Positions 1-40,960 of a stretch of DNA of 64,000 nt are shown in pieces. This stretch comes from Nemertoderma westbladi (Eukaryota; Animalia; Xenacoelomorpha): assembly GCA_032718475.1 (NCBI GenBank), contig JAUCBJ010008526.1:1-64000 (forward strand). Direction: 5' to 3'. The notes beneath the pieces were generated by a model. The model saw only the letters and a list, made by a program, of their open reading frames with translations. It was not told the origin of the DNA and did no database searches. Numbering within the stretch: the stretch's first letter is position 1; every line of letters starts with the position of its first letter. The position numbers were made by a program, and so were the translations under genes.

Positions 1-2015
1 ACGTAGCGAATGATGAGCCAGGCCAATCAAAGGGCATAAATTATCTTATTGCTCAAATGTGAGGCAGTGGAAAATTCTGTTAGGATTCCATGTCCCAGAT
101 TAGTGTAAGGGCCGGACTGCGTTGAACGATGAGCTGGGCCAATCATAGAGCACGAAGCACTTCATTGCTCAATGGTGAAGCTGTGGAAAATTCTGTTTAG
201 TTTCCATGTGCAATTTCTAGTATAAAAAGGCCGGTTTGCCTTCGGTTATCACCTTATTACGTTATTATCACACCTTATACTTCGTTACCCCTTTTCTCCA
301 CCTTATAGTTTATTCTTGTAAAATTAGTTAATTCGGTTTCTTGTTGAAACTTTATTTGATAAATCCTTTTGTAAAACTGTAAATATACTGCAATTTCCTG
401 ACATGTTTTCTTTTGGTCCGACTTCGGGACAGCCGAACACCAGGGAGATGGCAGCCTAGATCGTTAGGCCGTAAGCAACGCAGGGAAGGGATGTCCACAA
501 CACGCTAGCGCCCACATTGGATTGACCGCGCACCCCCTTTGCCCCTTCGAAATGCTCAACTTGCCATGCAGCGCCCGCTTTGTGAGAAGGTAAGACTTTG
601 TTCGACGCCCTTGCCCGCCGTAAGACCTATAGATCAGGGTAAGCGTGACATCGTACTGGACGCCGCAAATTTAGGATCAAATAATTATATCCAGACACCC
701 CCCCTTTGTCAAGTCCTACGAATCCCTGGGTTAACCTGTACTTCCTACAGGTGCGAACTATTGCCATTCGTCAGTACGCGAGTACACATTAGGTACGGAC
801 AGCATATGTTCCATAATTTAGTGATTCGTAGCACTGACTGTTTGGTACCGGTTCGCTTTGTAGAACGTACATTAGTACCCCCCCCCCCCCCCCCCCCTGT
901 CTGGAGTTAGCTATTTGATCAGGCAAGGAGCATTTCTGCTACCGGCACACTGCTTGGCCTAGGGAGGTTTATTAATATCCTACCGCGCCTTGCCACGTAC
1001 TGATAGGTATTGCTGCTAACTACCGCAGCAACAAAGTTCTAGAATTAAATTAGTATACCAGATCAGCTAACGTACGGTAGCGATTAACCCCTATTCTTAT
1101 CTTACAACCAGAATCTGGTATTAGTGCCGATCACGGGTGTAGTTACTAACACTGTGGTTGCCCATTGGGTTGTGGATAGGAAGGAGAGAGCTTGACGTCA
1201 TTCGTGAGTATAAAGTTCTACAAACGCGACTAGTTTATTTTAGTAGCTAGCGCACGGTATCATTTTAGTCAGAAAATCACTAAAACCTAGTAAAAGGAAT
1301 TACACGAAATTGTTTTATTTGTAACACACCCACACACACACGCCCTAAAACATATCGCCCTTAAAGTTCTACTAACTATAGCGTACTATACATTACGTTA
1401 GGTGGAAATTATCTGTATTTGTAAAATTAGGATCTGATTTAGTTGCGGCAAAATAAGGAGTATTTCACTTTCGTTATTAAACTGTTGTTTGTCTGGACAA
1501 CGGTATTGTTACATTTAGGCTTGACCTTTTAGACTGATTTCGTACAGGGGGATCAGTTATCGTTACATTTAGGTACGACCCCTTTTCGACTGATTTAGGA
1601 CTGTCAGTGTTGTTACGCTAGGTCTGTTAACCCACTAGCTCGTATATAAACCATATAAATCACACCGCGGCAAGTTACTGTATTTAGGACTGTCAGTGAT
1701 AGTTAGGATTCGCTGCGCGGGGATTGTTTTCCCGTGAGTTTGGTCTGTTACTGTAACTGTACATCTGCCTCACCGGTTAGAGGACAGGTATCCTTCTGTC
1801 TAGTACGTAGGCATTCGACCCGCTCACGTACATAGAATAGATACAAGGCTCTGTTCCTCGCCAGTAGTCGTTTGTGTACTATATCTGTTTGTTTAGATAT
1901 CCTGGACTGGGATTTGTTGTCAGATACTGTACAAGCCCGTATACATTACTAGAGTCTCATAGTAAGATACATCGTTACTAGGATCTGGTAAGCGGTATAC
2001 TACTGGACCCTTACA
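1..2015 (+). mobile_element. Probable LTR (3' or solo) of an LTR retrotransposon, left end outside the window
   Basis: Non-coding, with duplicated enhancer-like blocks, CCAAT and TATA boxes near the start and short internal direct repeats (~1505-1700). It ends in ...GGACCCTTACA exactly where the 36-bp satellite begins, matching the TG...CA LTR terminus. No gag/pol ORF is visible, so the class is inferred. Confidence 0.45.
8..227 (+). promoter_or_regulatory. Pol II promoter-like module: two ~116-bp imperfect direct repeats, each with GGCCAATCA and GGAAAATTC, followed by TATAAAA
   Basis: GGCCAATCA at 21-29 and 137-145, TATAAAA at 221-227. The architecture is typical of an LTR U3 region. Confidence 0.45.
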
Positions 2016-5000
2016 CCTAGTGTTAGTAATCTAGGAGAAATATAAGGAACACCTAGTGTTAGTAATCTAGGAGAATTATAAGGAACACCTAGTGTTAGTA
2101 ATCTAGGAGAAATATAAGGGACACCTTGTGTTAGTAATCTAGGATAAATATAAGGAACACCTAGTGTTAGTAATCTAGGAGAAATATAAGGAACACCCAG
2201 TGTTAGTAATCTAGGATAAATATAAGGAACACCTAGTGTTAGTAATCTAGGATAAATATAAGGGACACCTAGTGTTAGTAATCTAGGAGAAATATAAGGG
2301 ACACCTTGTGTTAGTAATCTAGGATAAATATAAGGAACACCTAGTGTTAGTAATCTAGGAGAAATATAAGGAACACCTAGTGTTAGTAATCTAGGAGAAA
2401 TATAAGGAACACCTAGTGTTAGTAATCTAGGAGAAATATAAGGAACACCTAGTGTTAGTAATCTAGGAGAAATATAAGGGACACCTTGTGTTAGTAATCT
2501 AGGATAAATATAAGGAACACCTAGTGTTAGTAATCTAGGAGAAATATAAGGAACACCTAGTGTTAGTAATCTAGGATAAATATAAGGGACACCTAGTGTT
2601 AGTAATCTAGGAGAAATATAAGGGATACCTAGTGTTAGTAATCTAGGAGAAATATAAGGGACACCTTGTGTTAGTAATCTAGGATAAATATAAGGAACAC
2701 CTAGTGTTAGTAATCTAGGAGAAATATAAGGAACACCTAGTGTTAGTAATCTAGGATAAATATAAGGAACACCTAGTGTTAGTAATCTAGGAGAAATATA
2801 AGGAACACCTAGTGTTAGTAATCTAGGATAAATATAAGGAACACCTAGTGTTAGTAATCTAGGAGAAATATAAGGAACACCTAGTGTTAGTAATCTAGGA
2901 GAAATATAAGGAACACCTAGTGTTAGTAATCTAGGAGAAATATATAGAACACTTAATGTTAGTAATCTAGGATAAATATAAGGGACACCTAGTGTTAGTA
3001 ATCTAGGAGAAATATAAGGGATACCTAGTGTTAGTAATCTAGGAGAAATATAAGGAACACCTAGTGTTAGTAATCTAGGATAAATATATTGAACACTTAA
3101 TGTTAGTAATCTAGGATAAATATAAGGGACACCTAGTGTTAGTAATCTAGGAGAAATATAAGGAACACCTAGTGTTAGTAATCTAGGATAAATATATTGA
3201 ACACTTAATGTTAGTAATCTAGGATAAATATAAGGGACACCTCGTGTTAGTAATCTAGGATAAATATAAGGAACACCTAGTGTTAGTAATCTAGGAGAAA
3301 TATAAGGAACACCTAGTGTTAGTAATCTAGGAGAAATATAAGGGATACCTAGTGTTAGTAATCTAGGAGAAATATAAGGAACACCTAGTGTTAGTAATCT
3401 AGGATAAATATATAAAACACTTAATGTTAGTAATCTAGGATAAATATAAGGGACACCTAGTGTTAGTAATCTAGGATAAATATAAGGAATACCTAATGTT
3501 AGTAATCTAGGAGAAATATATAGAACACCTAGTGTTAGTAATCTAGGAGAAATATAAGGGACACCTAGTGTTAATAATCTAGGATAAATATAAGGAACAC
3601 CTAGTGTTAGTAATCTAGGATAAATATAAGGAACACCTAGTGTTAGTAATCTAGGAGAATTATAAGGAACACCTAGTGTTAGTAATCTAGGAGAAATATA
3701 AGGAATACCTAATGTTAGTAATCTAGGAGAAATATAAGGAACACCTAGTGTTAGTAATCTAGGAGAATTATAAGGAACACCTAGTGTTAGTAATCTAGGA
3801 TAAATATAAGGGACACCTAGTGTTAGTAATCTAGGATAAATATATGGAACACTTAGTGTTAGTGATCTAGGATATTATAAGGAACACCTAGTGTTAGTAA
3901 TCTAGGAGAAATATAAGGAATACCTAATGTTAGTAATCTAGGAGAAATATAAGGAACACCTAGTGTTAGTAATCTAGGAGAAATATAAGGGACACCTAGT
4001 GTTAATAATCTAGGATAAATATAAGGAACACCTAGTGTTAGTAATCTAGGATAAATATAAGGAACACCTAGTGTTAGTAATCTAGGAGAATTATAAGGAA
4101 CACCTAGTGTTAGTAATCTAGGAGAAATATAAGGAATACCTAATGTTAGTAATCTAGGAGAAATATAAGGAACACCTAGTGTTAGTAATCTAGGAGAATT
4201 ATAAGGAACACCTAGTGTTAGTAATCTAGGATAAATATAAGGAACACCTAGTGTTAGTAATCTAGGATAAATATAAGGAACACCTAGTGTTAGTAATCTA
4301 GGAGAAATATAAGGAACACCTAGTGTTAGTAATCTAGGAGAAATATAAGGAACACCTAGTGTTAGTAATCTAGGAGAATTATAAGGAACACCTAGTGTTA
4401 GTAATCTAGGATAAATATAAGGAACACCTAGTGTTAGTAATCTAGGAGAATTATAAGGAACACCTAGTGTTAGTAATCTAGGAGAAATATAAGGAATACC
4501 TAATGTTAGTAATCTAGGAGAAATATAAGGAATACCTAATGTTAGTAATCTAGGAGAATTATAAGGAACACCTAGTGTTAGTAATCTAGGAGAAATATAA
4601 GGAATACCTAATGTTAGTAATCTAGGAGAAATATAAGGAACACCTAGTGTTAGTAATCTAGGAGAATTATAAGGAACACCTAGTGTTAGTAATCTAGGAT
4701 AAATATAAGGGACACCTAGTGTTAGTAATCTAGGATAAATATATGGAACACTTAGTGTTAGTGATCTAGGATATTATAAGGAACACCTAGTGTTAGTAAT
4801 CTAGGAGAAATATAAGGAATACCTAATGTTAGTAATCTAGGAGAAATATAAGGAACACCTAGTGTTAGTAATCTAGGAGAAATATAAGGGACACCTAGTG
4901 TTAATAATCTAGGATAAATATAAGGAACACCTAGTGTTAGTAATCTAGGATAAATATAAGGAACACCTAGTGTTAGTAATCTAGGAGAATTATAAGGAAC

Positions 5001-8000
5001 ACCTAGTGTTAGTAATCTAGGAGAAATATAAGGAATACCTAATGTTAGTAATCTAGGAGAAATATAAGGAACACCTAGTGTTAGTAATCTAGGAGAATTA
5101 TAAGGAACACCTAGTGTTAGTAATCTAGGATAAATATAAGGAACACCTAGTGTTAGTAATCTAGGATAAATATAAGGAACACCTAGTGTTAGTAATCTAG
5201 GAGAAATATAAGGAACACCTAGTGTTAGTAATCTAGGAGAAATATAAGGAACACCTAGTGTTAGTAATCTAGGAGAATTATAAGGAACACCTAGTGTTAG
5301 TAATCTAGGATAAATATAAGGAACACCTAGTGTTAGTAATCTAGGAGAATTATAAGGAACACCTAGTGTTAGTAATCTAGGAGAAATATAAGGAATACCT
5401 AATGTTAGTAATCTAGGAGAAATATAAGGAATACCTAATGTTAGTAATCTAGGAGAAATATAAGGAATACCTAATGTTAGTAATCTAGGATAAATATAAG
5501 GAACACCTAGTGTTAGTAATCTAGGAGAATTATAAGGAACACCTAGTGTTAGTAATCTAGGAGAAATATAAGGAATACCTAATGTTAGTAATCTAGGAGA
5601 AATATAAGGAACACCTAGTGTTAGTAATCTAGGAGAATTATAAGGAACACCTAGTGTTAGTAATCTAGGAGAAATATAAGGAATACCTAATGTTAGTAAT
5701 CTAGGAGAAATATAAGGAATACCTAATGTTAGTAATCTAGGAGAAATATAAGGAACACCTAGTGTTAGTAATCTAGGATAAATATAAGGAATACCTAATG
5801 TTAGTAATCTAGGAGAAATATATAGAACACCTAGTGTTAGTAATCTAGGAGAAATATAAGGGACACCTAGTGTTAATAATCTAGGATAAATATATAGAAC
5901 ACTTAATGTTAGTAATCTAGGATAAATATAAGGGACACCTAGTGTTAGTAATCTAGGATAAATATAAGGGACACCTAGTGTTAGTAATCTAGGATAAATA
6001 TAAGGAATACCTAATGTTAGTAATCTAGGAGAAATATATAGAACACCTAGTGTTAGTAATCTAGGAGAAATATAAGGAACACCTAGTGTTAGTAATCTAG
6101 GATAAATATAAGGAACACCTAGTGTTAGTAATCTAGGAGAATTATAAGGAACACCTAGTGTTAGTAATCTAGGAGAAATATAAGGAATACCTAATGTTAG
6201 TAATCTAGGAGAAATATAAGGAACACCTAGTGTTAGTAATCTAGGAGAAATATAAGGAACACCTAGTGTTAGTAATCTAGGAGAATTATATGAACACCTA
6301 GTGTTAGTAATCTAGGATAAATATAAGGAACACCTAGTGTTAGTAATCTAGGAGAATTATAAGGAACACCTAGTGTTAGTAATCTAGGAGAAATATAAGG
6401 AATACCTAATGTTAGTAATCTAGGAGAATTATAAGGAACACCTAGTGTTAGTAATCTAGGATAAATATAAGGAACACCTAGTGTTAGTAATCTAGGAGAA
6501 ATATAAGGAACACCTAGTGTTAGTAATCTAGGAGAAATATAAGGAACACCTAGTGTTAGTAATCTAGGAGAAATATAAGGAACACCTAGTGTTAGTAATC
6601 TAGGATAAATATATTGAACACTTAATGTTAGTAATCTAGGATAAATATAAGGGACACCTTGTGTTAGTAATCTAGGAGAAATATAAGGAACACCTAGTGT
6701 TAGTAATCTAGGATAAATATAAGGGACACCTTGTGTTAGTAATCTAGGAGAAATATAAGGAACACCTAGTGTTAGTAATCTAGGATAAATATATAGAACA
6801 CTTAATGTTAGTAATCTAGGATAAATATAAGGGACACCTAGTGTTAGTAATCTAGGATAAATATAAGGGACACCTTGTGTTAGTAATCTAGGAGAAATAT
6901 AAGGAACACCTAGTGTTAGTAATCTAGGATAAATATATAGAACACTTAATGTTAGTAATCTAGGATAAATATAAGGGACACCTAGTGTTAGTAATCTAGG
7001 ATAAATATAAGGAATACCTAATGTTAGTAATCTAGGAGAAATATATAGAACACCTAGTGTTAGTAATCTAGGAGAAATATAAGGGACACCTAGTGTTAAT
7101 AATCTAGGATAAATATAAGGAACACCTAGTGTTAGTAATCTAGGATAAATATAAGGAACACCTAGTGTTAGTAATCTAGGAGAATTATAAGGAACACCTA
7201 GTGTTAGTAATCTAGGAGAAATATAAGGAATACCTAATGTTAGTAATCTAGGAGAAATATAAGGAACACCTAGTGTTAGTAATCTAGGAGAATTATAAGG
7301 AACACCTAGTGTTAGTAATCTAGGAGAAATATAAGGAACACCTAGTGTTAGTAATCTAGGAGAAATATAAGGGATACCTAGTGTTAGTAATCTAGGAGAA
7401 ATATAAGGAACACCTAGTGTTAGTAATCTAGGATAAATATATAGAACACTTAATGTTAGTAATCTAGGATAAATATAAGGGACACCTCGTGTTAGTAATC
7501 TAGGAGAAATATAAGGAACACCTAGTGTTAGTAATCTAGGATAAATATAAGGAACACCTAGTGTTAGTAATCTAGGATAAATATAAGGAATACCTAATGT
7601 TAGTAATCTAGGAGAAATATATAGAACACCTAGTGTTAGTAATCTAGGATAAATATAAGGAACACCAAGTGTTAGTAATCTAGGATAAATATAAGGAATA
7701 CCTAATGTTAGTAATCTAGGAGAAATATATAGAACACCTAGTGTTAGTAATCTAGGAGAAATATAAGGGATACCTAGTGTTAGTAATCTAGGAGAATTAT
7801 AAGGAACACCTAGTGTTAGTAATCTAGGATAAATATATGGGACACCTAGTGTTAGTAATCTAGGATAAATATAAGGAACACCTAGTGTTAGTAATCTAGG
7901 ATAAATATAAGGAACACCTAGTGTTAGTAATCTAGGATAAATATATTGAACACTTAATGTTAGTAATCTAGGATAAATATAAGGGATACCTAGTGTTAGT

Positions 8001-11000
8001 AATCTAGGAGAAATATAAGGAACACCTAGTGTTAGTAATCTAGGAGAAATATAAGGAACACCTAGTGTTAGTAATCTAGGAGAAATATAAGGAACACCTA
8101 GTGTTAGTAATCTAGGAGAAATATAAGGAACACCTAGTGTTAGTAATCTAGGAGAAATATAAGGAACACCTAGTGTTAGTAATCTAGGATAAATATATAG
8201 AACACTTAATGTTAGTAATCTAGGATAAATATAAGGGACACCTAGTGTTAGTAATCTAGGAGAAATATAAGGAACACCCAGTGTTAGTAATCTAGGATAA
8301 ATATAAGGAACACCTAGTGTTAGTAATCTAGGATAAATATATTGAACACTTAATGTTAGTAATCTAGGATAAATATAAGGGACACCTAGTGTTAGTAATC
8401 TAGGATAAATATAAGGAACACCTAGTGTTAGTAATCTAGGATAAATATAAGGAATACCTAGTGTTAGTAATCTAGGATAAATATATAGAACACTTAATGT
8501 TAGTAATCTAGGATAAATATAAGGGACACCTAGTGTTAGTAATCTAGGAGAAATATAAGGGACACCTAGTGTTAGTAATCTAGGATAAATATAAGGAACA
8601 CCAAGTGTTAGTAATCTAGGAGAAATATAAGGAACACCTAGTGTTAGTAATCTAGGAGAAATATAAGGAACACCTAGTGTTAGTAATCTAGGAGAAATAT
8701 AAGGAATACCTAATGTTAGTAATCTAGGAGAAATATATAGAACACTTAATGTTAGTAATCTAGGATAAATATAAGGGACACCTAGTGTTAGTAATCTAGG
8801 ATAAATATAAGGAACACCTAGTGTTAGTAATCTAGGAGAAATATAAGGAACACCAAGTGTTAGTAATCTAGGAGAAATATAAGGGACACCTAGTGTTAGT
8901 AATCTAGGAGAAATATAAGGGACACCTAGTGTTAATAATCTAGGATAAATATAAGGAACACCTAGTGTTAGTAATCTAGGATAAATATAAGGAACACCTA
9001 GTGTTAGTAATCTAGGAGAAATATAAGGGACACCTAGTGTTAGTAATCTAGGAGAAATATAAGGGACACCTAGTGTTAATAATCTAGGATAAATATAAGG
9101 AACACCTAGTGTTAGTAATCTAGGATAAATATAAGGAACACCTAGTGTTAGTAATCTAGGAGAATTATAAGGAACACCTAGTGTTAGTAATCTAGGAGAA
9201 ATATAAGGAATACCTAATGTTAGTAATCTAGGAGAAATATAAGGAACACCTAGTGTTAGTAATCTAGGAGAATTATAAGGAACACCTAGTGTTAGTAATC
9301 TAGGATAAATATAAGGAACACCTAGTGTTAGTAATCTAGGAGAAATATAAGGAACACCTAGTGTTAGTAATCTAGGAGAAATATATAGAACACTTAATGT
9401 TAGTAATCTAGGAGAAATATAAGTAACACCTAGTGTTAGTAATCTAGGAGAAATATAAGGAACACCTAGTGTTAGTAATCTAGGATAAATATAAGGAACA
9501 CTTAGTGTTAGTAATCTAGGATAAATATAAGGGACACCTAGTGTTAGTAATCTAGGATAAATATAAGGAACACCTAGTGTTAGTAATCTAGGAGAAATAT
9601 AAGGAACACCAAGTGTTAGTAATCTAGGAGAAATATAAGGGGCACCTCTAGGATTAATATAAGGAACACCTAGTGTTAGTAATCTAGGAGAAATATAAGG
9701 GACACCTAGTGTTAGTAATCTAGGAGAAATATAAGGGACACCTAGTGTTAATAATCTAGGATAAATATAAGGAACACCTAGTGTTAGTAATCTAGGATAA
9801 ATATAAGGAACACCTAGTGTTAGTAATCTAGGAGAAATATAAGGGACACCTAGTGTTAGTAATCTAGGAGAAATATAAGGGACACCTAGTGTTAATAATC
9901 TAGGATAAATATAAGGAACACCTAGTGTTAGTAATCTAGGATAAATATAAGGAACACCTAGTGTTAGTAATCTAGGAGAATTATAAGGAACACCTAGTGT
10001 TAGTAATCTAGGAGAAATATAAGGAATACCTAATGTTAGTAATCTAGGAGAAATATAAGGAACACCTAGTGTTAGTAATCTAGGAGAATTATAAGGAACA
10101 CCTAGTGTTAGTAATCTAGGATAAATATAAGGAACACCTAGTGTTAGTAATCTAGGAGAAATATAAGGAACACCTAGTGTTAGTAATCTAGGAGAAATAT
10201 AAGGAACACCTAGTGTTAGTAATCTAGGAGAAATATAAGGGATACCTAGTGTTAGTAATCTAGGAGAAATATAAGGAACACCTAGTGTTAGTAATCTAGG
10301 AGAAATATAAGGAACACCTAGTGTTAGTAATCTAGGATAAATATAAGGAACACTTAGTGTTAGTAATCTAGGATAAATATAAGGGACACCTAGTGTTAGT
10401 AATCTAGGATAAATATAAGGAACACCTAGTGTTAGTAATCTAGGAGAAATATAAGGAACACCAAGTGTTAGTAATCTAGGAGAAATATAAGGGGCACCTC
10501 TAGGATTAATATAAGGAACACCTAGTGTTAGTAATCTAGGAGAAATATAAGGGACACCTAGTGTTAGTAATCTAGGAGAAATATAAGGGACACCTAGTGT
10601 TAATAATCTAGGATAAATATAAGGAACACCTAGTGTTAGTAATCTAGGATAAATATAAGGAACACCTAGTGTTAGTAATCTAGGAGAAATATAAGGGACA
10701 CCTAGTGTTAGTAATCTAGGAGAAATATAAGGGACACCTAGTGTTAATAATCTAGGATAAATATAAGGAACACCTAGTGTTAGTAATCTAGGATAAATAT
10801 AAGGAACACCTAGTGTTAGTAATCTAGGATAAATATAAGGAACACCTAGTGTTAGTAATCTAGGAGAAATATAAGGAACACCTAGTGTTAGTAATCTAGG
10901 AGAAATATAAGGAACACCTAGTGTTAGTAATCTAGGAGAAATATAAGGGATACCTAGTGTTAGTAATCTAGGAGAAATATAAGGAACACCTAGTGTTAGT

Positions 11001-14000
11001 AATCTAGGAGAAATATAAGGAACACCTAGTGTTAGTAATCTAGGATAAATATAAGGAACACTTAGTGTTAGTAATCTAGGATAAATATAAGGGACACCTA
11101 GTGTTAGTAATCTAGGATAAATATAAGGAACACCTAGTGTTAGTAATCTAGGAGAAATATAAGGAACACCAAGTGTTAGTAATCTAGGAGAAATATAAGG
11201 GGCACCTCTAGGATTAATATAAGGAACACCTAGTGTTAGTAATCTAGGAGAAATATAAGGGACACCTAGTGTTAGTAATCTAGGAGAAATATAAGGGACA
11301 CCTAGTGTTAATAATCTAGGATAAATATAAGGAACACCTAGTGTTAGTAATCTAGGATAAATATAAGGAACACCTAGTGTTAGTAATCTAGGAGAAATAT
11401 AAGGGACACCTAGTGTTAGTAATCTAGGAGAAATATAAGGGACACCTAGTGTTAATAATCTAGGATAAATATAAGGAACACCTAGTGTTAGTAATCTAGG
11501 ATAAATATAAGGAACACCTAGTGTTAGTAATCTAGGAGAATTATAAGGAACACCTAGTGTTAGTAATCTAGGAGAAATATAAGGAATACCTAATGTTAGT
11601 AATCTAGGAGAAATATAAGGAACACCTAGTGTTAGTAATCTAGGAGAATTATAAGGAACACCTAGTGTTAGTAATCTAGGATAAATATAAGGAACACCTA
11701 GTGTTAGTAATCTAGGAGAAATATAAGGAACACCTAGTGTTAGTAATCTAGGAGAAATATAAGGAACACCTAGTGTTAGTAATCTAGGAGAAATATAAGG
11801 GATACCTAGTGTTAGTAATCTAGGAGAAATATAAGGAACACCTAGTGTTAGTAATCTAGGATAAATATATAGAACACTTAATGTTAGTAATCTAGGATAA
11901 ATATAAGGGACACCTCGTGTTAGTAATCTAGGAGAAATATAAGGAACACCTAGTGTTAGTAATCTAGGATAAATATATAGAACACTTAATGTTAGTAATC
12001 TAGGATAAATATAAGGGACACCTAGTGTTAGTAATCTAGGAGAAATATAAGGAACACCCAGTGTTAGTAATCTAGGATAAATATATAGAACACCTAGTGT
12101 TAGTAATCTAGGAGAAATATAAGGAACACTTAGTGTTAGTAATCTAGGAGAAATATAAGGAACACCTAGTGTTAGTAATCTAGGAGAAATATATAGAACA
12201 CCTAGTGTTAGTAATCTAGGAGAAATATAAGGAACACTTAGTGTTAGTAATCTAGGAGAAATATAAGGAACACCTAGTGTTAGTAATCTAGGATAAATAT
12301 AAGGAACACCTAGTGTTAGTAATCTAGGAGAAATATAAGGGATACCTAGTGTTAGTAATCTAGGAGAAATATAAGGAACACCTAGTGTTAGTAATCTAGG
12401 ATAAATATATAGAACACTTAATGTTAGTAATCTAGGATAAATATAAGGGACACCTAGTGTTAGTAATCTAGGAGAAATATAAGGAACACCCAGTGTTAGT
12501 AATCTAGGATAAATATAAGGAACACCTAGTGTTAGTAATCTAGGATAAATATATTGAACACTTAATGTTAGTAATCTAGGATAAATATAAGGGACACCTA
12601 GTGTTAGTAATCTAGGAGAAATATAAGGAATACCTAATGTTAGTAATCTAGGAGAAATATAAGGAACACCTAGTGTTAGTAATCTAGGAGAATTATAAGG
12701 AACACCTAGTGTTAGTAATCTAGGATAAATATAAGGAACACCTAGTGTTAGTAATCTAGGAGAAATATAAGGAACACCTAGTGTTAGTAATCTAGGAGAA
12801 ATATAAGGAACACCTGGTGTTAGTAATCTAGGAGAAATATAAGGGATACCTAGTGTTAGTAATCTAGGAGAAATATAAGGAACACCTAGTGTTAGTAATC
12901 TAGGATAAATATATAGAACACTTAATGTTAGTAATCTAGGATAAATATAAGGGACACCTCGTGTTAGTAATCTAGGAGAAATATAAGGAACACCTAGTGT
13001 TAGTAATCTAGGATAAATATATAGAACACTTAATGTTAGTAATCTAGGATAAATATAAGGGACACCTAGTGTTAGTAATCTAGGAGAAATATAAGGAACA
13101 CCCAGTGTTAGTAATCTAGGATAAATATAGAGAACACCTAGTGTTAGTAATCTAGGAGAAATATAAGGAACACTTAGTGTTAGTAATCTAGGAGAAATAT
13201 AAGGAACACCTAGTGTTAGTAATCTAGGAGAAATATATAGAACACCTAGTGTTAGTAATCTAGGAGAAATATAAGGAACACTTAGTGTTAGTAATCTAGG
13301 AGAAATATAAGGAACACCTAGTGTTAGTAATCTAGGATAAATATAAGGAACACCTAGTGTTAGTAATCTAGGAGAAATATAAGGGATACCTAGTGTTAGT
13401 AATCTAGGAGAAATATAAGGAACACCTAGTGTTAGTAATCTAGGATAAATATATAGAACACTTAATGTTAGTAATCTAGGATAAATATAAGGGACACCTA
13501 GTGTTAGTAATCTAGGAGAAATATAAGGAACACCCAGTGTTAGTAATCTAGGATAAATATAAGGAACACCTAGTGTTAGTAATCTAGGATAAATATATTG
13601 AACACTTAATGTTAGTAATCTAGGATAAATATAAGGGACACCTAGTGTTAGTAATCTAGGAGAAATATAAGGGACACCTAGTGTTAGTAATCTAGGAGAA
13701 ATATAAGGGACACCTAGTGTTAGTAATCTAGGATAAATATAAGGAACACCAAGTGTTAGTAATCTAGGAGAATTATAAGGAACACCTAGTGTTAGTAATC
13801 TAGGAGAAATATAAGGGATACCTAGTGTTAGTAATCTAGGAGAAATATAAGGAACACCTAGTGTTAGTAATCTAGGATAAATATATAGAACACTTAATGT
13901 TAGTAATCTAGGATAAATATATAGAACACTTAATGTTAGTAATCTAGGATAAATATAAGGAATGTTAGTAATCTAGGATAAATATAAGGGACACCTAGTG

Positions 14001-17000: not shown

Positions 17001-20000
17001 CCTAGTGTTAGTAATCTAGGATAAATATATTGAACACTTAATGTTAGTAATCTAGGATAAATATAAGGGACACCTAGTGTTAGTAATCTAGGAGAAATAT
17101 AAGGGACACCTAGTGTTAGTGATCTAGGAGAAATATAAGGAACACTTAGTGTTAGTAATCTAGGAGAAATATAAGGGACACCTAGTGTTAGTAATCTAGG
17201 AGAAATATAAGGGACACCTAGTGTTAGTAATCTAGGATAAATATAAGGAACACCAAGTGTTAGTAATCTAGGAGAATTATAAGGAACACCTAGTGTTAGT
17301 AATCTAGGAGAAATATAAGGGATACCTAGTGTTAGTAATCTAGGAGAAATATAAGGAACACCTAGTGTTAGTAATCTAGGATAAATATATAGAACACTTA
17401 ATGTTAGTAATCTAGGATAAATATAAGGGACACCTAGTGTTAGTAATCTAGGAGAATTATAAGGAACACCTAGTGTTAGTAATCTAGGAGAAATATAAGG
17501 AATACCTAATGTTAGTAATCTAGGAGAAATATAAGGAACACCTAGTGTTAGTAATCTAGGAGAATTATAAGGAACACCTAGTGTTAGTAATCTAGGATAA
17601 ATATAAGGAACACCTAGTGTTAGTAATCTAGGAGAAATATAAGGAACACCTAGTGTTAGTAATCTAGGAGAAATATAAGGAACACCTGGTGTTAGTAATC
17701 TAGGAGAAATATAAGGGATACCTAGTGTTAGTAATCTAGGAGAAATATAAGGAACACCTAGTGTTAGTAATCTAGGATAAATATATAGAACACTTAATGT
17801 TAGTAATCTAGGATAAATATAAGGGACACCTCGTGTTAGTAATCTAGGAGAAATATAAGGAACACCTAGTGTTAGTAATCTAGGATAAATATATAGAACA
17901 CTTAATGTTAGTAATCTAGGATAAATATAAGGGACACCTAGTGTTAGTAATCTAGGAGAAATATAAGGAACACCCAGTGTTAGTAATCTAGGATAAATAT
18001 AGAGAACACCTAGTGTTAGTAATCTAGGAGAAATATAAGGAACACTTAGTGTTAGTAATCTAGGAGAAATATAAGGAACACCTAGTGTTAGTAATCTAGG
18101 AGAAATATATAGAACACCTAGTGTTAGTAATCTAGGAGAAATATAAGGAACACTTAGTGTTAGTAATCTAGGAGAAATATAAGGAACACCTAGTGTTAGT
18201 AATCTAGGATAAATATAAGGAACACCTAGTGTTAGTAATCTAGGAGAAATATAAGGGATACCTAGTGTTAGTAATCTAGGAGAAATATAAGGAACACCTA
18301 GTGTTAGTAATCTAGGATAAATATATAGAACACTTAATGTTAGTAATCTAGGATAAATATAAGGGACACCTAGTGTTAGTAATCTAGGAGAAATATAAGG
18401 AACACCCAGTGTTAGTAATCTAGGATAAATATAAGGAACACCTAGTGTTAGTAATCTAGGATAAATATATTGAACACTTAATGTTAGTAATCTAGGATAA
18501 ATATAAGGGACACCTAGTGTTAGTAATCTAGGAGAAATATAAGGGACACCTAGTGTTAGTAATCTAGGAGAAATATAAGGGACACCTAGTGTTAGTAATC
18601 TAGGATAAATATAAGGAACACCAAGTGTTAGTAATCTAGGAGAATTATAAGGAACACCTAGTGTTAGTAATCTAGGAGAAATATAAGGGATACCTAGTGT
18701 TAGTAATCTAGGAGAAATATAAGGAACACCTAGTGTTAGTAATCTAGGATAAATATATAGAACACTTAATGTTAGTAATCTAGGATAAATATATAGAACA
18801 CTTAATGTTAGTAATCTAGGATAAATATAAGGAATGTTAGTAATCTAGGATAAATATAAGGGACACCTAGTGTTAGTAATCTAGGAGAATTATAAGGAAC
18901 ACCTAGTGTTAGTAATCTAGGATAAATATAAGGAACACCTAGTGTTAGTAATCTAGGAGAAATATAAGGATCTAGGAGAAATATAAGGAACACCTAGTGT
19001 TAGTAATCTAGGAGAATTATAAGGAACACCTAGTGTTAGTAATCTAGGATAAATATAAGGAACACCTAGTGTTAGTAATCTAGGAGAAATATAAGGAACA
19101 CCTAGTGTTAGTAATCTAGGAGAAATATAAGGAACACCTAGTGTTAGTAATCTAGGAGAAATATAAGGGATACCTAGTGTTAGTAATCTAGGAGAAATAT
19201 AAGGAACACCTAGTGTTAGTAATCTAGGATAAATATATAGAACACTTAATGTTAGTAATCTAGGATAAATATAAGGGACACCTCGTGTTAGTAATCTAGG
19301 AGAAATATAAGGAACACCTAGTGTTAGTAATCTAGGATAAATATATAGAACACTTAATGTTAGTAATCTAGGATAAATATAAGGGACACCTAGTGTTAGT
19401 AATCTAGGAGAAATATAAGGAACACCCAGTGTTAGTAATCTAGGATAAATATATAGAACACCTAGTGTTAGTAATCTAGGAGAAATATAAGGAACACTTA
19501 GTGTTAGTAATCTAGGAGAAATATAAGGAACACCTAGTGTTAGTAATCTAGGAGAAATATATAGAACACCTAGTGTTAGTAATCTAGGAGAAATATAAGG
19601 AACACTTAGTGTTAGTAATCTAGGAGAAATATAAGGAACACCTAGTGTTTGTAATCTAGGATAAATATAAGGAACACCTAGTGTTAGTAATCTAGGAGAA
19701 ATATAAGGGATACCTAGTGTTAGTAATCTAGGAGAAATATAAGGAACACCTAGTGTTAGTAATCTAGGATAAATATATAGAACACTTAATGTTAGTAATC
19801 TAGGATAAATATAAGGGACACCTAGTGTTAGTAATCTAGGAGAAATATAAGGAACACCCAGTGTTAGTAATCTAGGATAAATATAAGGAACACCTAGTGT
19901 TAGTAATCTAGGATAAATATATTGAACACTTAATGTTAGTAATCTAGGATAAATATAAGGGACACCTAGTGTTAGTAATCTAGGAGAAATATAAGGGACA

Positions 20001-23000
20001 CCTAGTGTTAGTAATCTAGGAGAAATATAAGGGACACCTAGTGTTAGTAATCTAGGATAAATATAAGGAACACCAAGTGTTAGTAATCTAGGAGAATTAT
20101 AAGGAACACCTAGTGTTAGTAATCTAGGAGAAATATAAGGGATACCTAGTGTTAGTAATCTAGGAGAAATATAAGGAACACCTAGTGTTAGTAATCTAGG
20201 ATAAATATATAGAACACTTAATGTTAGTAATCTAGGATAAATATAAGGGACACCTAGTGTTAGTAATCTAGGAGAATTATAAGGAACACCTAGTGTTAGT
20301 AATCTAGGAGAAATATAAGGAATACCTAATGTTAGTAATCTAGGAGAAATATAAGGAACACCTAGTGTTAGTAATCTAGGAGAATTATAAGGAACACCTA
20401 GTGTTAGTAATCTAGGATAAATATAAGGAACACCTAGTGTTAGTAATCTAGGAGAAATATAAGGAACACCTAGTGTTAGTAATCTAGGAGAAATATAAGG
20501 AACACCTAGTGTTAGTAATCTAGGAGAAATATAAGGGATACCTAGTGTTAGTAATCTAGGAGAAATATAAGGAACACCTAGTGTTAGTAATCTAGGATAA
20601 ATATATAGAACACTTAATGTTAGTAATCTAGGATAAATATAAGGGACACCTCGTGTTAGTAATCTAGGAGAAATATAAGGAACACCTAGTGTTAGTAATC
20701 TAGGATAAATATATAGAACACTTAATGTTAGTAATCTAGGATAAATATAAGGGACACCTAGTGTTAGTAATCTAGGAGAAATATAAGGAACACCCAGTGT
20801 TAGTAATCTAGGATAAATATATAGAACACCTAGTGTTAGTAATCTAGGAGAAATATAAGGAACACTTAGTGTTAGTAATCTAGGAGAAATATAAGGAACA
20901 CCTAGTGTTAGTAATCTAGGAGAAATATATAGAACACCTAGTGTTAGTAATCTAGGAGAAATATAAGGAACACTTAGTGTTAGTAATCTAGGAGAAATAT
21001 AAGGAACACCTAGTGTTAGTAATCTAGGATAAATATAAGGAACACCTAGTGTTAGTAATCTAGGAGAAATATAAGGGATACCTAGTGTTAGTAATCTAGG
21101 AGAAATATAAGGAACACCTAGTGTTAGTAATCTAGGATAAATATATAGAACACTTAATGTTAGTAATCTAGGATAAATATAAGGGACACCTAGTGTTAGT
21201 AATCTAGGAGAAATATAAGGAACACCCAGTGTTAGTAATCTAGGATAAATATAAGGAACACCTAGTGTTAGTAATCTAGGATAAATATATTGAACACTTA
21301 ATGTTAGTAATCTAGGATAAATATAAGGGACACCTAGTGTTAGTAATCTAGGAGAAATATAAGGGACACCTAGTGTTAGTAATCTAGGAGAAATATAAGG
21401 GACACCTAGTGTTAGTAATCTAGGATAAATATAAGGAACACCAAGTGTTAGTAATCTAGGAGAATTATAAGGAACACCTAGTGTTAGTAATCTAGGAGAA
21501 ATATAAGGGATACCTAGTGTTAGTAATCTAGGAGAAATATAAGGAACACCTAGTGTTAGTAATCTAGGATAAATATATAGAACACTTAATGTTAGTAATC
21601 TAGGATAAATATAAGGGACACCTAGTGTTAGTAATCTAGGAGAAATATAAGGAACACCCAGTGTTAGTAATCTAGGATAAATATAAGGAACACCTAGTGT
21701 TAGTAATCTAGGATAAATATATTGAACACTTAATGTTAGTAATCTAGGATAAATATAAGGGACACCTAGTGTTAGTAATCTAGGAGAAATATAAGGGACA
21801 CCTAGTGTTAGTAATCTAGGAGAAATATAAGGGACACCTAGTGTTAGTAATCTAGGATAAATATAAGGAACACCAAGTGTTAGTAATCTAGGAGAATTAT
21901 AAGGAACACCTAGTGTTAGTAATCTAGGAGAATTATAAGGAACACTTAGTGTTAGTAATCTAGGAGAATTATAAGGAACACTTAATGTTAGTAATCTAGG
22001 ATAAATATAAGGGACACCTAGTGTTAGTAATCTAGGAGAATTATAAGGAACACCTAGTGTTAGTAATCTAGGAGAAATATAAGGAACACTTAGTGTTAGT
22101 AATCTAGGATAAATATAAGGAACACCTAGTGTTAGTAATCTAGGATATTATAAGGAACACCTAGTGTTAGTAATCTAGGAGAATTATAAGGAACACTTAA
22201 TGTTAGTAATCTAGGAGAAATATAAGGAACACTTAATGTTAGTAATCTAGGATAAATATAAGGGACACCTAGTGTTAGTAATCTAGGAGAAATATAAGGG
22301 ACACCTAGTGTTAGTAATCTAGGAGAAATATAAGGGACACCTAGTGTTAGTAATCTAGGATAAATATAAGGAACACCAAGTGTTAGTAATCTAGGAGAAT
22401 TATAAGGAACACCTAGTGTTAGTAATCTAGGAGAATTATAAGGAACACCTAGTGTTAGTAATCTAGGATAAATATAAGGAACACCTAGTGTTAGTAATCT
22501 AGGATAAATATAAGGAATACCTAATGTTAGTAATCTAGGAGAAATATATAGAACACTTAATGTTAGTAATCTAGGAGAATTATAAGGAACACCTAGTGTT
22601 AGTAATCTAGGATAAATATAAGGAATACCTAATGTTAGTAATCTAGGAGAAATATATAGAACACTTAATGTTAGTAATCTAGGAGAATTATAAGGAACAC
22701 CTAGTGTTAGTAATCTAGGATAAATATAAGGAACACCTAATGTTAGTAATCTAGGATAAATATAAGGGACACCTAGTGTTAGTAATCTAGGAGAAATATA
22801 AGGGATACCTAGTGTTAGTAATCTAGGAGAAATATAAGGAACACCTAGTGTTAGTAATCTAGGATAAATATATTGAACACTTAATGTTAGTAATCTAGGA
22901 TAAATATAAGGGACACCTAGTGTTAGTAATCTAGGAGAAATATAAGGGACACCTAGTGTTAGTAATCTAGGAGAAATATAAGGGACACCTAGTGTTAGTA

Positions 23001-26000
23001 ATCTAGGATAAATATATTGAACACTTAGTGTTAGTAATCTAGGAGAAATATAAGGAACACCTAGTGTTAGTAATCTAGGATAAATATAAGGAATACCTAG
23101 TGTTAGTAATCTAGGAGAAATATAAGGAACACCTAGTGTTAGTAATCTAGGATAAATATATTGAACACTTAATGTTAGTAATCTAGGATAAATATAAGGG
23201 ACACCTAGTGTTAGTAATCTAGGAGAAATATAAGGGACACCTAGTGTTAGTAATCTAGGAGAAATATAAGGGACACCTAGTGTTAGTAATCTAGGATAAA
23301 TATAAGGAACACCAAGTGTTAGTAATCTAGGAGAAATATAAGGAACACCTAGTGTTAGTAATCTAGGAGAATTATAAGGAACACCTAGTGTTAGTAATCT
23401 AGGATAAATATAAGGAACACCTAGTGTTAGTAATCTAGGAGAAATATAAGGAACACCTAGTGTTAGTAATCTAGGAGAAATATAAGGAACACCTAGTGTT
23501 AGTAATCTAGGAGAAATATAAGGAACACCTAGTGTTAGTAATCTAGGAGAAATATAAGGAACACCTAGTGTTAGTAATCTAGGAGAAATATAAGGGACAC
23601 CTTGTGTTAGTAATCTAGGATAAATATAAGGAACACCTAGTGTTAGTAATCTAGGAGAAATATAAGGAACACCCAGTGTTAGTAATCTAGGATAAATATA
23701 AGGAACACCTCGTGTTAGTAATCTAGGATAAATATAAGGAACACCTAGTGTTAGTAATCTAGGAGAAATATAAGGAACACCTAGTGTTAGTAATCTAGGA
23801 GAAATATAAGGGACACCTTGTGTTAGTAATCTAGGATAAATATAAGGAACACCTAGTGTTAGTAATCTAGGAGAAATATAAGGAACACCTAGTGTTAGTA
23901 ATCTAGGAGAAATATAAGGAACACCTAGTGTTAGTAATCTAGGAGAAATATAAGGGACACCTTGTGTTAGTAATCTAGGATAAATATAAGGAACACCTAG
24001 TGTTAGTAATCTAGGAGAAATATAAGGAACACCCAGTGTTAGTAATCTAGGATAAATATAAGGAACACCTCGTGTTAGTAATCTAGGATAAATATAAGGG
24101 ACACCTAGTGTTAGTAATCTAGGAGAAATATAAGGGATACCTAGTGTTAGTAATCTAGGAGAAATATAAGGAACACCTAGTGTTAGTAATCTAGGATAAA
24201 TATAAGGAACACCTAGTGTTAGTAATCTAGGATAAATATATAGAACACCTAGTGTTAGTAATCTAGGATAAATATAAGGAACACCTAGTGTTAGTAATCT
24301 AGGAGAAATATAAGTAACACCTAGTGTTAGTAATCTAGGATATATATAAGGAACACCTAGTGTTAGTAATCTAGGATAAATATAAGGAACACCTAGTGTT
24401 AGTAATCTAGGAGAAATATATAGAACACCTAGTGTTATTAATCTAGGATAAATATATTGAACACTTAATGTTAGTGATCTAGGAGAAATATAAGGAACAC
24501 CTAGTGTTAGTAATCTAGGATAAATATAAGGAACACCTAGTGTTAGTAATCTAGGATAAATATAAGGAACACCTAGTGTTAGTAATCTAGGAGAAATATA
24601 TAGAACACCTAGTGTTATTAATCTAGGATAAATATAAGGAACACCTAGTGTTAGTAATCTAGGATAAATATATTGAACACTTAATGTTAGTAATCTAGGA
24701 GAAATATAAGGAACACCTAGTGTTAGTAATCTAGGAGAATTATAAGGAACACCTAGTGTTAGTAGTCTAGGAGAAATATAAGGGACACCTAGTGTTAGTA
24801 ATCTAGGAGAAATATAAGGGACACCTAGTGTTAGTAATCTAGGATAAATATAAGGAACACCAAGTGTTAGTAATCTAGGAGAAATATAAGGAACACCTAG
24901 TGTTAGTAATCTAGGAGAATTATAAGGAACACCTAGTGTTAGTAATCTAGGATAAATATAAGGAACACCTAGTGTTAGTAATCTAGGAGAAATATAAGGA
25001 ACACCTAGTGTTAGTAATCTAGGAGAAATATAAGGGACACCTTGTGTTAGTAATCTAGGATAAATATAAGGAACACCTAGTGTTAGTAATCTAGGAGAAA
25101 TATAAGGAACACCCAGTGTTAGTAACCTAGGAGAAATGTGAGGAACACCTAGTGTTAGTAATCTAGGAGAAATATAAGGGACACCTTGTGTTAGTAATCT
25201 AGGATAAATATAAGGAACACCTAGTGTTAGTAATCTAGGAGAAATATAAGGAACACTTAGTGTTAGTAATTTAGGAGAAATATAAGGAACACTTAGTGTT
25301 AGTAATTTAGGAGAATTATAAGGAACACCTAGTGTTAGTAATCTAGGAGAAATATAAGGAACACCTAGTGTTAGTAATCTAGGAGAAATATAAGGAACAC
25401 CTAGTGTTAGTAATCTAGGAGAAATATAAGGGACACCTTGTGTTTGTAATCTAGGATAAATATAAGGAACACCTAGTGTTAGTAATCTAGGAGAAATATA
25501 AGGAACACTTAGTGTTAGTAATTTAGGAGAAATATAAGGAACACCTAGTGTTAGTAATCTAGGATAAATATAAGGAACACCTAGTGTTAGTAATCTAGGA
25601 TAAATATATAGAACACCTAGTGTTAGTAATCTAGGATAAATATATTGAACACTTAATGTTAGTAATCTAGGAGAAATATAAGGAACACCTAGTGTTAGTA
25701 ATCTAGGAGAATTATAAGGAACACCTAGTGTTAGTAGTCTAGGAGAAATATAAGGGACACCTAGTGTTAGTAATCTAGGAGAAATATAAGGGACACCTAG
25801 TGTTAGTAATCTAGGATAAATATAAGGAACACCAAGTGTTAGTAATCTAGGAGAAATATAAGGAACACCTAGTGTTAGTAATCTAGGAGAATTATAAGGA
25901 ACACCTAGTGTTAGTAATCTAGGATAAATATAAGGAACACCTAGTGTTAGTAATCTAGGAGAAATATAAGGAACACCTAGTGTTAGTAATCTAGGAGAAA

Positions 26001-28274
26001 TATAAGGGACACCTTGTGTTAGTAATCTAGGATAAATATAAGGAACACCTAGTGTTAGTAATCTAGGAGAAATATAAGGAACACCCAGTGTTAGTAACCT
26101 AGGAGAAATGTGAGGAACACCTAGTGTTAGTAATCTAGGAGAAATATAAGGGACACCTTGTGTTAGTAATCTAGGATAAATATAAGGAACACCTAGTGTT
26201 AGTAATCTAGGAGAAATATAAGGAACACTTAGTGTTAGTAATTTAGGAGAAATATAAGGAACACTTAGTGTTAGTAATTTAGGAGAATTATAAGGAACAC
26301 CTAGTGTTAGTAATCTAGGAGAAATATAAGGAACACCTAGTGTTAGTAATCTAGGAGAAATATAAGGAACACCTAGTGTTAGTAATCTAGGAGAAATATA
26401 AGGGACACCTTGTGTTAGTAATCTAGGATAAATATAAGGAACACCTAGTGTTAGTAATCTAGGAGAAATATAAGGAACACTTAGTGTTAGTAATTTAGGA
26501 GAAATATAAGGAACACCTAGTGTTAGTAATCTAGGATAAATATAAGGAACACCTAGTGTTAGTAATCTAGGATAAATATATAGAACACCTAGTGTTAGTA
26601 ATCTAGGATAAATATAAGGAACACCTAGTGTTAGTAATCTAGGAGAAATATAAGTAACACCTAGTGTTAGTAATCTAGGATATATATAAGGAACACCTAG
26701 TGTTAGTAATCTAGGATAAATATAAGGAACACCTAGTGTTAGTAATCTAGGAGAAATATATAGAACACCTAGTGTTATTAATCTAGGATAAATATATTGA
26801 ACACTTAATGTTAGTGATCTAGGAGAAATATAAGGAACACCTAGTGTTAGTAATCTAGGATAAATATAAGGAACACCTAGTGTTAGTAATCTAGGATAAA
26901 TATAAGTAACACCTAGTGTTAGTAATCTAGGATATATATAAGGAACACCTAGTGTTAGTAATCTAGGATAAATATAAGGAACACCTAGTGTTAGTAATCT
27001 AGGAGAAATATATAGAACACCTAGTGTTATTAATCTAGGATAAATATATTGAACACTTAATGTTAGTGATCTAGGAGAAATATAAGGGACACCTAGTGTT
27101 AGTAATCTAGGAGAAATATAAGGAACACTTAGTGTTAGTAATCTAGGAGAAATATAAGGAACACCTAGTGTTAGTAGTCTAGGAGAAATATAAGGGACAC
27201 CTAGTGTTAGTAATCTAGGAGAATTATAAGGAACACCTAGTGTTAGTAGTCTAGGAGAAATATAAGGGACACCTAGTGTTAGTAATCTAGGAGAAATATA
27301 AGGGACACCTAGTGTTAGTAATCTAGGATAAATATAAGGAACACCAAGTGTTAGTAATCTAGGAGAAATATAAGGAACACCTAGTGTTAGTAATCTAGGA
27401 GAATTATAAGGAACACCTAGTGTTAGTAATCTAGGATAAATATAAGGAACACCTAGTGTTAGTAATCTAGGAGAAATATAAGGAACACCTAGTGTTAGTA
27501 ATCTAGGAGAAATATAAGGGACACCTTGTGTTAGTAATCTAGGATAAATATAAGGAACACCTAGTGTTAGTAATCTAGGAGAAATATAAGGAACACCCAG
27601 TGTTAGTAACCTAGGAGAAATGTGAGGAACACCTAGTGTTAGTAATCTAGGAGAAATATAAGGGACACCTTGTGTTAGTAATCTAGGATAAATATAAGGA
27701 ACACCTAGTGTTAGTAATCTAGGAGAAATATAAGGAACACTTAGTGTTAGTAATTTAGGAGAATTATAAGGAACACCTAGTGTTAGTAATCTAGGAGAAA
27801 TATAAGGAACACCTAGTGTTAGTAATCTAGGAGAATTATAAGGAACACCTAGTGTTAGTAATCTAGGAGAAATATAAGGAACACCAAGAGTTAGTAATCT
27901 AGGAGAAATATAAGGAACACCTAGTGTTAGTAATCTAGGAGAATTATAAGGAACACCTAGTGTTAGTAATCTAGGATAAATATAAGGAACACCTAGTGTT
28001 AGTAATCTAGGAGAAATATAAGGAACACCTAGTGTTAGTAATCTAGGAGAAATATAAGTAACACCTAGTGTTAGTAATCTAGGATATATATAAGGGACAC
28101 CTAGTGTTAGTAATCTAGGATAAATATAAGGAACACCCAGTGTTAGTAACCTAGGAGAAATGTGAGGACACTTAGTGTTAGTAATTTAGGAGAAATATTT
28201 AGAACACCTAGTGTTAGTAATCTAGGAGAAATATAAGGAACACCTAGTGTTAGTGATCTAGGAGAAATATAAGG
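2013..28274. repeat. 36-bp satellite array, ~730 units, consensus ACACCTAGTGTTAGTAATCTAGGAGAAATATAAGGA
   Basis: Directly visible head-to-tail repeat with recurring variant units and higher-order periods of 899, 852/708, 984, 972 and 4872 bp. Confidence 0.99.
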
Positions 28275-28309
28275 CCCACTTTTACCCCGAGTATAATACC
28301 ACACAGTAC

Positions 28310-28426
28310 CATACATACATACATACATACATACATACATACATACATACATACATACATACATACATACATACATACATACATACATACATACATACAT
28401 ACATACATACATACATTCATACATAC
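28310..28426. repeat. (CATA)n microsatellite in the isomerase-gene intron
   Basis: About 29 near-perfect tetranucleotide units. Confidence 0.98.
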
Positions 28427-28485
28427 CGTTAGATTCATTTATTATTCTAGAATAATTATACAATAATATCGACAGGTTGGTTTAC

Positions 28486-28736
28486 CTTATTTTCAACTCG
28501 TTCAGGTTTTGTAGGAAATCTTCCACCCTTTCTGCTTCTGTCACTTTCATCCAATCCAGATCGAGCCCTTGGCAATAGTGTTTACTCTTCCCTATGGTAA
28601 CCAAGGCAACGCACTCGTCGTTCTCCATAGCTTCGCTCAAGGCTTCTTGAAACCCCGCCACCCATTGGATGTTAATCAAGCATCCATCCATAGTTACTAT
28701 GGCTACACCATTGTCAAACGTAACAGTAAATCCCAT
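28486..28736 (-). CDS. Exon of a crotonase-superfamily enoyl-CoA delta-isomerase/hydratase-like gene (N-terminal part)
   Basis: MGFTVTFDNGVAIVTMD...ALVTIGKSKHYCQGLDLDWM matches the crotonase N-terminus, including the oxyanion-hole xGxDL motif. Ends at a phase-2 donor AG|GTAAAC (28486/28485). A pyrimidine-rich acceptor TTCACTCTTAG lies 11 nt before the ATG (exon start 28747). Confidence 0.85.
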
Positions 28737-29805: not shown

Positions 29806-30005
29806 AGGTTTTTCATTGGGTCGGCCAGACAATTGAACCGAATAGAAGCGGTGTCTAGGAGTCCCATTTACAGTCACTTCCAGGAGACCCTTCAAGGGAC
29901 GTCTATTATTCGCGCCTTCAAATCCACAGAAACATTCAGTATGCAGACCCGCAAGTTAATTGATGGCAATATTGATTGTATTTACCCGTATCAGACAATA
30001 AACAG
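29806..30005 (+). CDS. ABCC/MRP1-like ABC transporter, internal exon (TMD2)
   Basis: TTGCAG| acceptor and |GTGAG donor, 200 bp. RFFIGSARQLNRIEAVSRSPIYSHFQETLQG matches the MRP RQLKRLESVSRSPVYSHF motif. Confidence 0.95.
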
Positions 30006-30049
30006 GTGAGTATTCGTAGTCACTCATATCAGACAGCAAACTGGTGAAG

Positions 30050-30368
30050 TAAAGTGAAAAAATATTTTCTTCGGCCGTTATAGGCCAGGGATTAAGCACA
30101 AAGTCTTATGACGGGGGGGGGGGGGGGGTAGTAGGAGTGGGGGTGTTATAACCCCCTTAATAACAGTGCTGACCCCCAGAACAATTAATACTCCCAAGAT
30201 CAAACTGGTACGCATTCAGCTAATATTTATGAAGAAAGGCAGATTGTCCCTTGAAAGCTTTCGTGTCAAAATGAAAACTACCCTGGCCCCTATGCGGGGA
30301 TCGAACCTACGACCTCCGCAAAGTTGTGAATTCAAGGCGATGGATTTAAGCACTACGCCAAGGAGGGC
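30050..30368 (-). mobile_element. tRNA-derived SINE
   Basis: Minus-strand head (30368-30284) GCCCTCCTTGGCGTAGTG...GGTTCGATCCCCGCATAGGGGCCA has A and B boxes but mismatched stems, followed by a non-tRNA body. The 3' boundary is approximate. Confidence 0.65.
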
Positions 30369-31382: not shown

Positions 31383-31436
31383 CATGGAATACTAAATATA
31401 CATGTATATATATATATGTATATTTAGTATTCCATG
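31383..31436. mobile_element. 54-bp palindromic mini-element (CATGGAATACTAAATATACAT...ATGTATATTTAGTATTCCATG) with a 7-bp TSD
   Basis: 21-bp perfect TIRs around a short TA run. CACCACC is duplicated at 31376-31382 and 31437-31443. Confidence 0.7.
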
Positions 31437-31989
31437 CACCACCTCTAATAATTAATTAACTGTGCAGTACGCTCTACTTGCTGTAATATACATTGTGTCA
31501 GCTAACTGTAATGTACGTACTATAGCCGAACCGAACATATTAGTATTCCGCAATAATTTTTATTGTCCGTTTAAATCCTTTTTTTGTCCTTTTTTTTTTA
31601 TTTTTTATGTCCTCCAAAAGTCTAATGTTAGGTTCCATGCTACCGGTTTCTCTACTGCTGTTCTCTCAGGCTATCAGTACCGGTATTAGTATATATAGCA
31701 CTATTTTGCTGTATTGTATGTACAGATGTAGGTATAAAGCAGGTATTTCTGTATTTTAGTACCGGTACCTGCACCGGTACTGCTATAGGCCTACTATGTA
31801 GCCTACCATTTAAATACGGTAATGGTAGGCCTACCGGTTGTGCTAATAAATTTTAAATGATTGATAGGCCAAACTGGATTGCAGGATTGTGGAAAATGTG
31901 GATATACCTTTCACATAATTTAGGCCTATTACTGTATTAGTTTTATAATCAATAATGGATCATGACTACTGTCTGAGTAGTGTTACGGA

Positions 31990-39410: not shown

Positions 39411-39413
39411 TAG

Positions 39414-39782
<369 letters not shown>

Positions 39783-40492: not shown

Positions 40493-40960
<468 letters not shown>

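Follow-up and report, generated by a model that had tools for sequence, protein, structure and literature searches.

The 36-nt tandem array that fills 26 kb of the window (the whole 64-kb stretch of DNA analysed) is almost certainly an amplified junction of an enoyl-CoA delta isomerase-like gene, made up of the end of an intron and the beginning of the exon that follows it. This junction origin is well supported because the register of homologous proteins and a shuffle test agree, both of which are evidence of protein homology, not of mRNA. The array likely belongs to the mirage minisatellites, a known class of repeats, of which it would be an unusually large member, and it indicates that the splice junction of a gene can itself seed an array of satellite scale. 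The features on which this description is based are listed in Table 1.

Table 1. Positions of the isomerase-like exon, its repeat-filled intron and the neighbouring gene in the window.
Feature	Position	Strand	Basis or description
Acceptor-side mirage array (likely)	2013..28274	-	36-nt unit; Tandem Repeats Finder and minus-strand parse
Last, truncated array unit	2013..2030	-	Exon-like start at 2030; match stops after 18 nt
Non-coding left flank	1..2015		GC 0.435; direct repeats within the flank; inverted 8-nt ends (104 and 2015)
Enoyl-CoA delta isomerase-like (crotonase family) coding exon	28486..28736	-	Profile of 125 homologues; named homologues
Unique 5' part of isomerase intron	28275..28485	-	Donor GT at 28485-28484; 4-nt microsatellite 28310-28426
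ABCC/MRP transporter gene, 3' part	29806..46917	+	Homologue residues 1103-1474 in order; likely last exon ending at 46917
Donor-side ABCC mirage	36079..39053	+	Last 24 nt of exon plus first 10 nt of intron; 34 nt x ~88

Structure and turnover of the 36-nt array

Tandem Repeats Finder recovered a single array with a period of 36 nt, 730 copies and 91% matches, and a parse of the minus strand found 726 unit starts, with 725 of the units complete and 61 variants among them; the ~730 units over 26 kb given in the preliminary description are therefore real. Exact 36-nt length was found in 710 of the 725 complete units. Each unit is laid out as a pyrimidine tract, TAG and an exon-like start containing TACTAAC, with the branch-like A at -29, i.e., 29 nt ahead of the next exon-like start, and with an extra AG at unit positions 13-14, a few bases past this A. 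The AG signal is widely kept, since units ended in TAG in 717 cases and in TAA in 8. TACTAAC was present in 697 of the 725 units, and the position of -29 that had been claimed for the branch-like A was right. Both TACTAAC and AG were intact in 689 units (of 725); that hundreds of such copies would compete as 3' splice sites, as the preliminary description had it, is an interpretation of this pattern. A 25-nt junction pattern matched 723 times in the window, compared with 0 matches in 100 shuffles. No other copy of the unit was found in the window after masking of the array, and a 24-nt pattern taken from the unit gave 0 matches in metagenome contigs. The unit also corresponds to 12 codons that are free of stops in the spliced frame, and the run before a stop had a median of 628 and a maximum of 2,558 codons. 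Each unit also contains two GT sites, which are poor donors next to the real donors of the window.

Analysis of the order of variants along the array revealed higher-order block duplications of up to 134 units: the order recurred with periods between 19 and 241 units, and in one example 55 identical units came back in the same order 134 units further on. The edge nearest the donor was degenerate. Its first copy is mutated and reads RSLTLGVP, the first five units are all unique and form the rarest stretch of the array (rank 1 of 721), and every one of the 8 units that lack AG falls within the first 83. The left edge was composed of common variants, and its last five units were ordinary (rank 479 of 721) and not degenerate. 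The block duplications and the degenerate first five units fit concerted evolution with divergent boundary units. The signal positions, which make up 10 of the 36 positions of the unit, held 5 of the 29 variant alleles (p 0.14), with no clear depletion.

The array unit as a splice junction of the isomerase-like gene

The coding exon comprises the N-terminal 83 codons and two of the three bases of the Arg codon that the intron splits, in a frame that is open back to 28820, and it ends in AG followed by GTAAAC. Individual searches with this fragment gave faint signals: Pfam ECH_1 (PF00378) reached an E value of 0.052 and 13.3 bits for this fragment (below the cut-off of 27 bits), the PDB match to EchA3 was weak (E 0.0085), and a word-indexed search with the exon alone returned no homologue at E <= 0.001 among 29 candidates. 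A full search of representative proteins yielded 13 matches, nine of which were used; the four left out were long multi-stretch matches of 1060-2201 aa. The profile of 125 homologues was composed of eight representative matches and 117 new proteins, with a 115-aa fragment (P0004) left out, and it matched the exon at E 1.2e-19 over profile positions 12-99. The N-terminal crotonase motifs, including G-L-D-L, are present. The named homologues were animal proteins (molluscs, a placozoan and a nemertean), either enoyl-CoA delta isomerase-like or uncharacterised, and the highest identity of the exon to any homologue was 41%. Several animals contain multiple paralogues, and the matches at the 80 related loci kept of 572 were all near full-length and without interruption, and so showed no intron position.

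The distance from the donor to the first acceptor AG, which ends at 28258, is 228 nt, and the unique intron passes into the array through a CCT shared with the end of the unit. The exon end at 28486, the first acceptor and the entry through CCT are all as the preliminary description had placed them. The proposed division of the unit into 14 nt of intron and 22 nt of exon stood as a junction split, but not as an exact one, because the ambiguity of CCT leaves 14-17 nt to the intron and 19-22 nt to the exon.

We compared the spliced reading of the unit with the corresponding stretch of the homologues. The split codon at the end of the coding exon encodes Arg, which is invariant in the family (125/125). 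From this residue, the unit reads R-L-L-T-L-G-V-P, as claimed earlier, in register with the 125 homologues, where the commonest family residues are R-L-L-T-F-P-M-P-T; four of the seven residues after Arg (L, L, T and P) are the commonest ones, and one homologue reads RIMHLGIPT at this point. After P, the unit gives Y where T is invariant (125/125), which marks the return to intron sequence. The eight-residue reading scored 15.25 bits on a position matrix, a value reached by 47 of 200,000 shuffled units when any AG and match lengths of 4 to 12 were allowed. The best score among 2,027 other AG sites outside the arrays was 11.5 bits, and the junction score of the four other arrays in the window was at most 7.7. 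Addition of 22 nt of the unit to the exon raised the profile score from 64.9 to 75.0 bits. The G of the unit, which sits where 118 of the 125 homologues have P, scored negatively, and the eight-residue score was lower than in 119 of the 125 homologues. The identification of the unit as a 3' acceptor/exon junction of the isomerase gene, as first proposed, thus agrees with both the homologue register and the shuffles.

The broken left end of the array

The array breaks off abruptly at about 2015. Its last unit reads LLTLGVRVQ followed by a stop, and carries a donor-like GTAAGG 16 nt past its acceptor. A final unit running on into TVAAINGH-like coding sequence, which had been anticipated, does not occur inside the window. 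A search of six frames of the 64 kb for the rest of the isomerase (profile positions 100-248) gave a best E value of 3.1, and five short-motif scans of the window for the missing exons all remained far below homologue scores. The C-terminal crotonase half, with its NGH-AxAGG motif and invariant Glu, is absent within the window and may lie to its left. Because the left edge consists of common variants while the donor-proximal edge is degenerate, the data suggest that the array was cut at about 2015 rather than naturally ended.

The GC content of the left flank exceeds the 0.34-0.36 of the other unique stretches of the window. At its border with the array, the flank starts with TG when read on the minus strand, for which an inverted 8-nt match exists at 104 and a 5-nt alternative at 1320; we estimate the random expectation for an 8-nt inverted match in 2 kb at roughly 3%. 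TG...CA termini are typical of LTR ends. The flank is likely transposon-derived, but was not assigned to LTR retrotransposons because no target-site duplication was found; paired LTRs and gag/pol were likewise not detected within 1-2015, and the element may extend past the window. None of 11 ORFs in the flank had a Pfam match, and the flank had no Rfam match; no tRNA genes were found in the 64-kb window. The flank further contains direct repeats of 86 nt with CCAAT-like boxes (8 and 124), as well as inverted 23-nt arms at 675-697 and 898-920.

Origin, growth and fate of the array

The account that we favour, with moderate confidence, takes these observations together. The entry point of the array suggests that seeding was a 36-nt duplication of the junction at 3-nt microhomology, namely the shared CCT. 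Growth would have followed by unequal exchange, with block duplication shown by the repeated variant order. Judging from published mirages, the copies would be skipped in splicing; they would be ignored because none is followed by a good donor, and exon definition would be confined to a copy that continues into a complete exon. An insertion of transposon-like DNA probably cut the array at ~2015, judging from its left edge, which is abrupt and not degenerate, and from the LTR-like end of the flank, and the true exon would then lie to the left of the window, beyond this insertion. On this account, the array would have no function of its own and would be clutter that is tolerated in its intron, antisense to the ABCC gene whose intron surrounds it. 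That the gene is alive is a further step, which we judge less likely than not: in a live gene, the spliceosome would pass at least 689 consecutive consensus units of branch point, pyrimidine tract and AG, over at least 26 kb, to one true exon.

The principal competing explanation accepts the same junction origin but supposes that this gene copy is dead, either because the unit at 2030 was the true exon start and an insertion or deletion broke it, or because the remainder of the gene disappeared; in both versions, the array would have expanded without selection. We regard these two versions, taken jointly, as rather unlikely but as a serious contender. The gene may be dead because its exon is unusually divergent: it deviates at 10 of 23 well-conserved columns, compared with at most 8 in any of the 125 homologues, a comparison biased in favour of the homologues, which themselves define the consensus, and in two motifs it lacks an Asn found in 124/125. 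The lack of a downstream isomerase exon within the window, the existence of multiple isomerase paralogues in several animals and an array size far exceeding that of other mirages are also consistent with a dead copy. However, the ATG, the 83-codon frame and the GT donor are all intact, the left edge resembles the interior of the array, and the window ends just 2 kb beyond it, all of which speak against a dead copy. The GTAAGG in the last unit raises the highly unlikely option that this unit is a real 16-nt micro-exon, with 1-2014 as the next intron. As a donor, GTAAGG matches better than either GT site of the unit, and with an exit in phase 0 the frame would be preserved into a next exon that started with V-P-T; but no V-P-T-like exon was found in 1-2014, the V-P codons beyond that point in every unit argue that the original exon ran on, and the same bases can also be read as an LTR-like start.

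The remaining alternatives concern the array itself. Use of the copies as alternative acceptors, which would lower expression or add in-frame 12-residue repeats as a regulatory or protein-repeat device, could account for the retention of both signals in 689 of the 725 units and for the stop-free 12-codon frame. We consider it very improbable, as conservation is not enriched at the signal positions, AG is lost in 8 of the first 83 units, nearest the donor, every such reading inside the window hits a stop before the catalytic half, and published mirages are silent in splicing in the account given by the excerpted amphioxus study (PMC3087553). An assembly artefact, with either too many copies assembled or a chimeric join at ~2015, would match the abrupt left edge and the long blocks that are repeated exactly (55 identical units with a 134-unit period), but seems to us hardly probable either: the 61 variants are nested and locally clustered and the edge is degenerate, which has the look of real repeat turnover, the window contains zero N bases, and the junction origin would stand regardless. 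We give the least credence, close to none, to an unrelated satellite that came to lie in the intron and whose similarity to the protein is fortuitous. The match covers only seven residues, and three other large arrays (68, 19 and 53 nt) showed no junction link; against this, few of the shuffled units (47 of 200,000) reached the score, the phase, the strand and the 228-nt distance from the donor are all correct, and the masked window holds no copy elsewhere.

Comparison with known junction repeats

Tandem copies of intron/exon borders, termed mirages, were described in amphioxus globin genes (BflGb6 and BflGb9) and in Adh3 (PMC3087553, in the excerpts considered here). BflGb6 carries an acceptor-side mirage, in which the 3' end of the intron and part of the 5' end of the exon occur in 3-6 copies of 150-160 bp; RT-PCR suggested normal splicing across it, and copies with intact AG/GT were reported to be harmless (PMC3087553). 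As in the case of amphioxus, AG/GT is kept in the arrays of the present window, boundary units escape homogenisation, and both 5' and 3' borders have been copied. In contrast to BflGb6, there are ~730 copies over 26 kb. Two further features differ from the amphioxus mirages as presented in those excerpts: the array, as far as it is visible, does not lead into the authentic exon, and the 36-nt unit forms an open 12-codon frame whose exonic part spells a consensus branch site. In lancelet, 60-bp and 108-bp repeats of PGBD5 and mirages of troponin C overlap splice sites and were found to be real, with splicing undisturbed, but these repeats are imperfect and number 2-7 copies, according to the portion of the report consulted (PMC3902484).

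Compared with these published copy numbers (3-6 in BflGb6 and 2-7 in PGBD5), the new aspect is size, which is ~100 times larger. A mirage with hundreds of copies was not found within a limited collection of papers. The satellites in the giant introns of Drosophila Y-linked genes are simple and are not known to derive from the splice junction of the gene. The isomerase-like gene would resemble these Drosophila genes in being spliced across a long satellite-filled intron, although the Drosophila introns are far larger (PMC6508621). In the part of the work on earthworm metallothionein considered here, the repeats are intronic minisatellites, not junction repeats. If the isomerase-like gene is expressed, the array would set an extreme upper bound on the number of near-perfect decoy acceptors that splicing can ignore, and if the gene is alive, the array would exceed any other natural stack of decoy 3' splice sites that we found and offer a ready-made test of exon definition versus first-AG scanning. 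Because the unit is open over 12 codons, any slip of splicing in a live gene would insert 12-residue repeats in frame, which could run to thousands of residues, and inside the window such a reading would never reach the catalytic half. In a dead gene, the array would be no more than an oddity of repeat turnover.

A second junction array in the neighbouring ABCC/MRP gene

The window also contains the 3' part of an ABCC/MRP transporter gene, for which one homologue match had 43% identity. The earlier exons of this gene do not lie in the window, where homologue residues 1-1102 gave only weak cross-matches on later exons. If this gene is whole, the isomerase exon and its array are probably nested antisense in a single ABCC intron of >29 kb; the nearest exons of the two genes are ~1 kb apart.

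An array of 34-nt units occupies most of a 3.3-kb ABCC intron. The real exon end (36102) itself forms the first copy, so that the array adjoins the authentic border, and AAG/GT was kept in 75 of 84 parsed segments. It resembles, as a minisatellite at an exon/intron border, the human CBS 31-bp VNTR, which is annotated at exon 13-intron 13 and is reported to be associated with enzyme activity (PMC1395315, in the excerpt considered). Arrays that straddle a splice junction thus account for two of the five large arrays in the window; no link to a splice junction was found for the 68-, 19- and 53-nt arrays. The junction array in the neighbouring gene indicates that this genome makes such repeats, and the occurrence of two in adjacent genes suggests that exon borders often seed repeats in it.

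Other repeats are abundant in this region, the five large tandem arrays together making up ~45 kb of the 64 kb. An ABCC intron contains a 636-codon reverse-transcriptase ORF on the plus strand at 41788-43698 (PF00078, E 3.8e-28), probably of a LINE, and fragments related to it lie near 30366-30502, 34221-34308 and 35127-35325. A 692-nt inverted repeat with 99.6% identity (30501-31192 and 33480-34170), perhaps a foldback-type element, encloses the 68-nt array (31990-33159). The 19-nt array (47826-56191; 441 copies) is strongly G-skewed and starts ~0.9 kb past the likely ABCC stop codon. The 53-nt array (56984-63397; 121 copies) is flanked by inverted arms at 56663-56830 and 63399-63506, and its unit resembles these arms, which suggests growth inside a foldback or MITE-like element.
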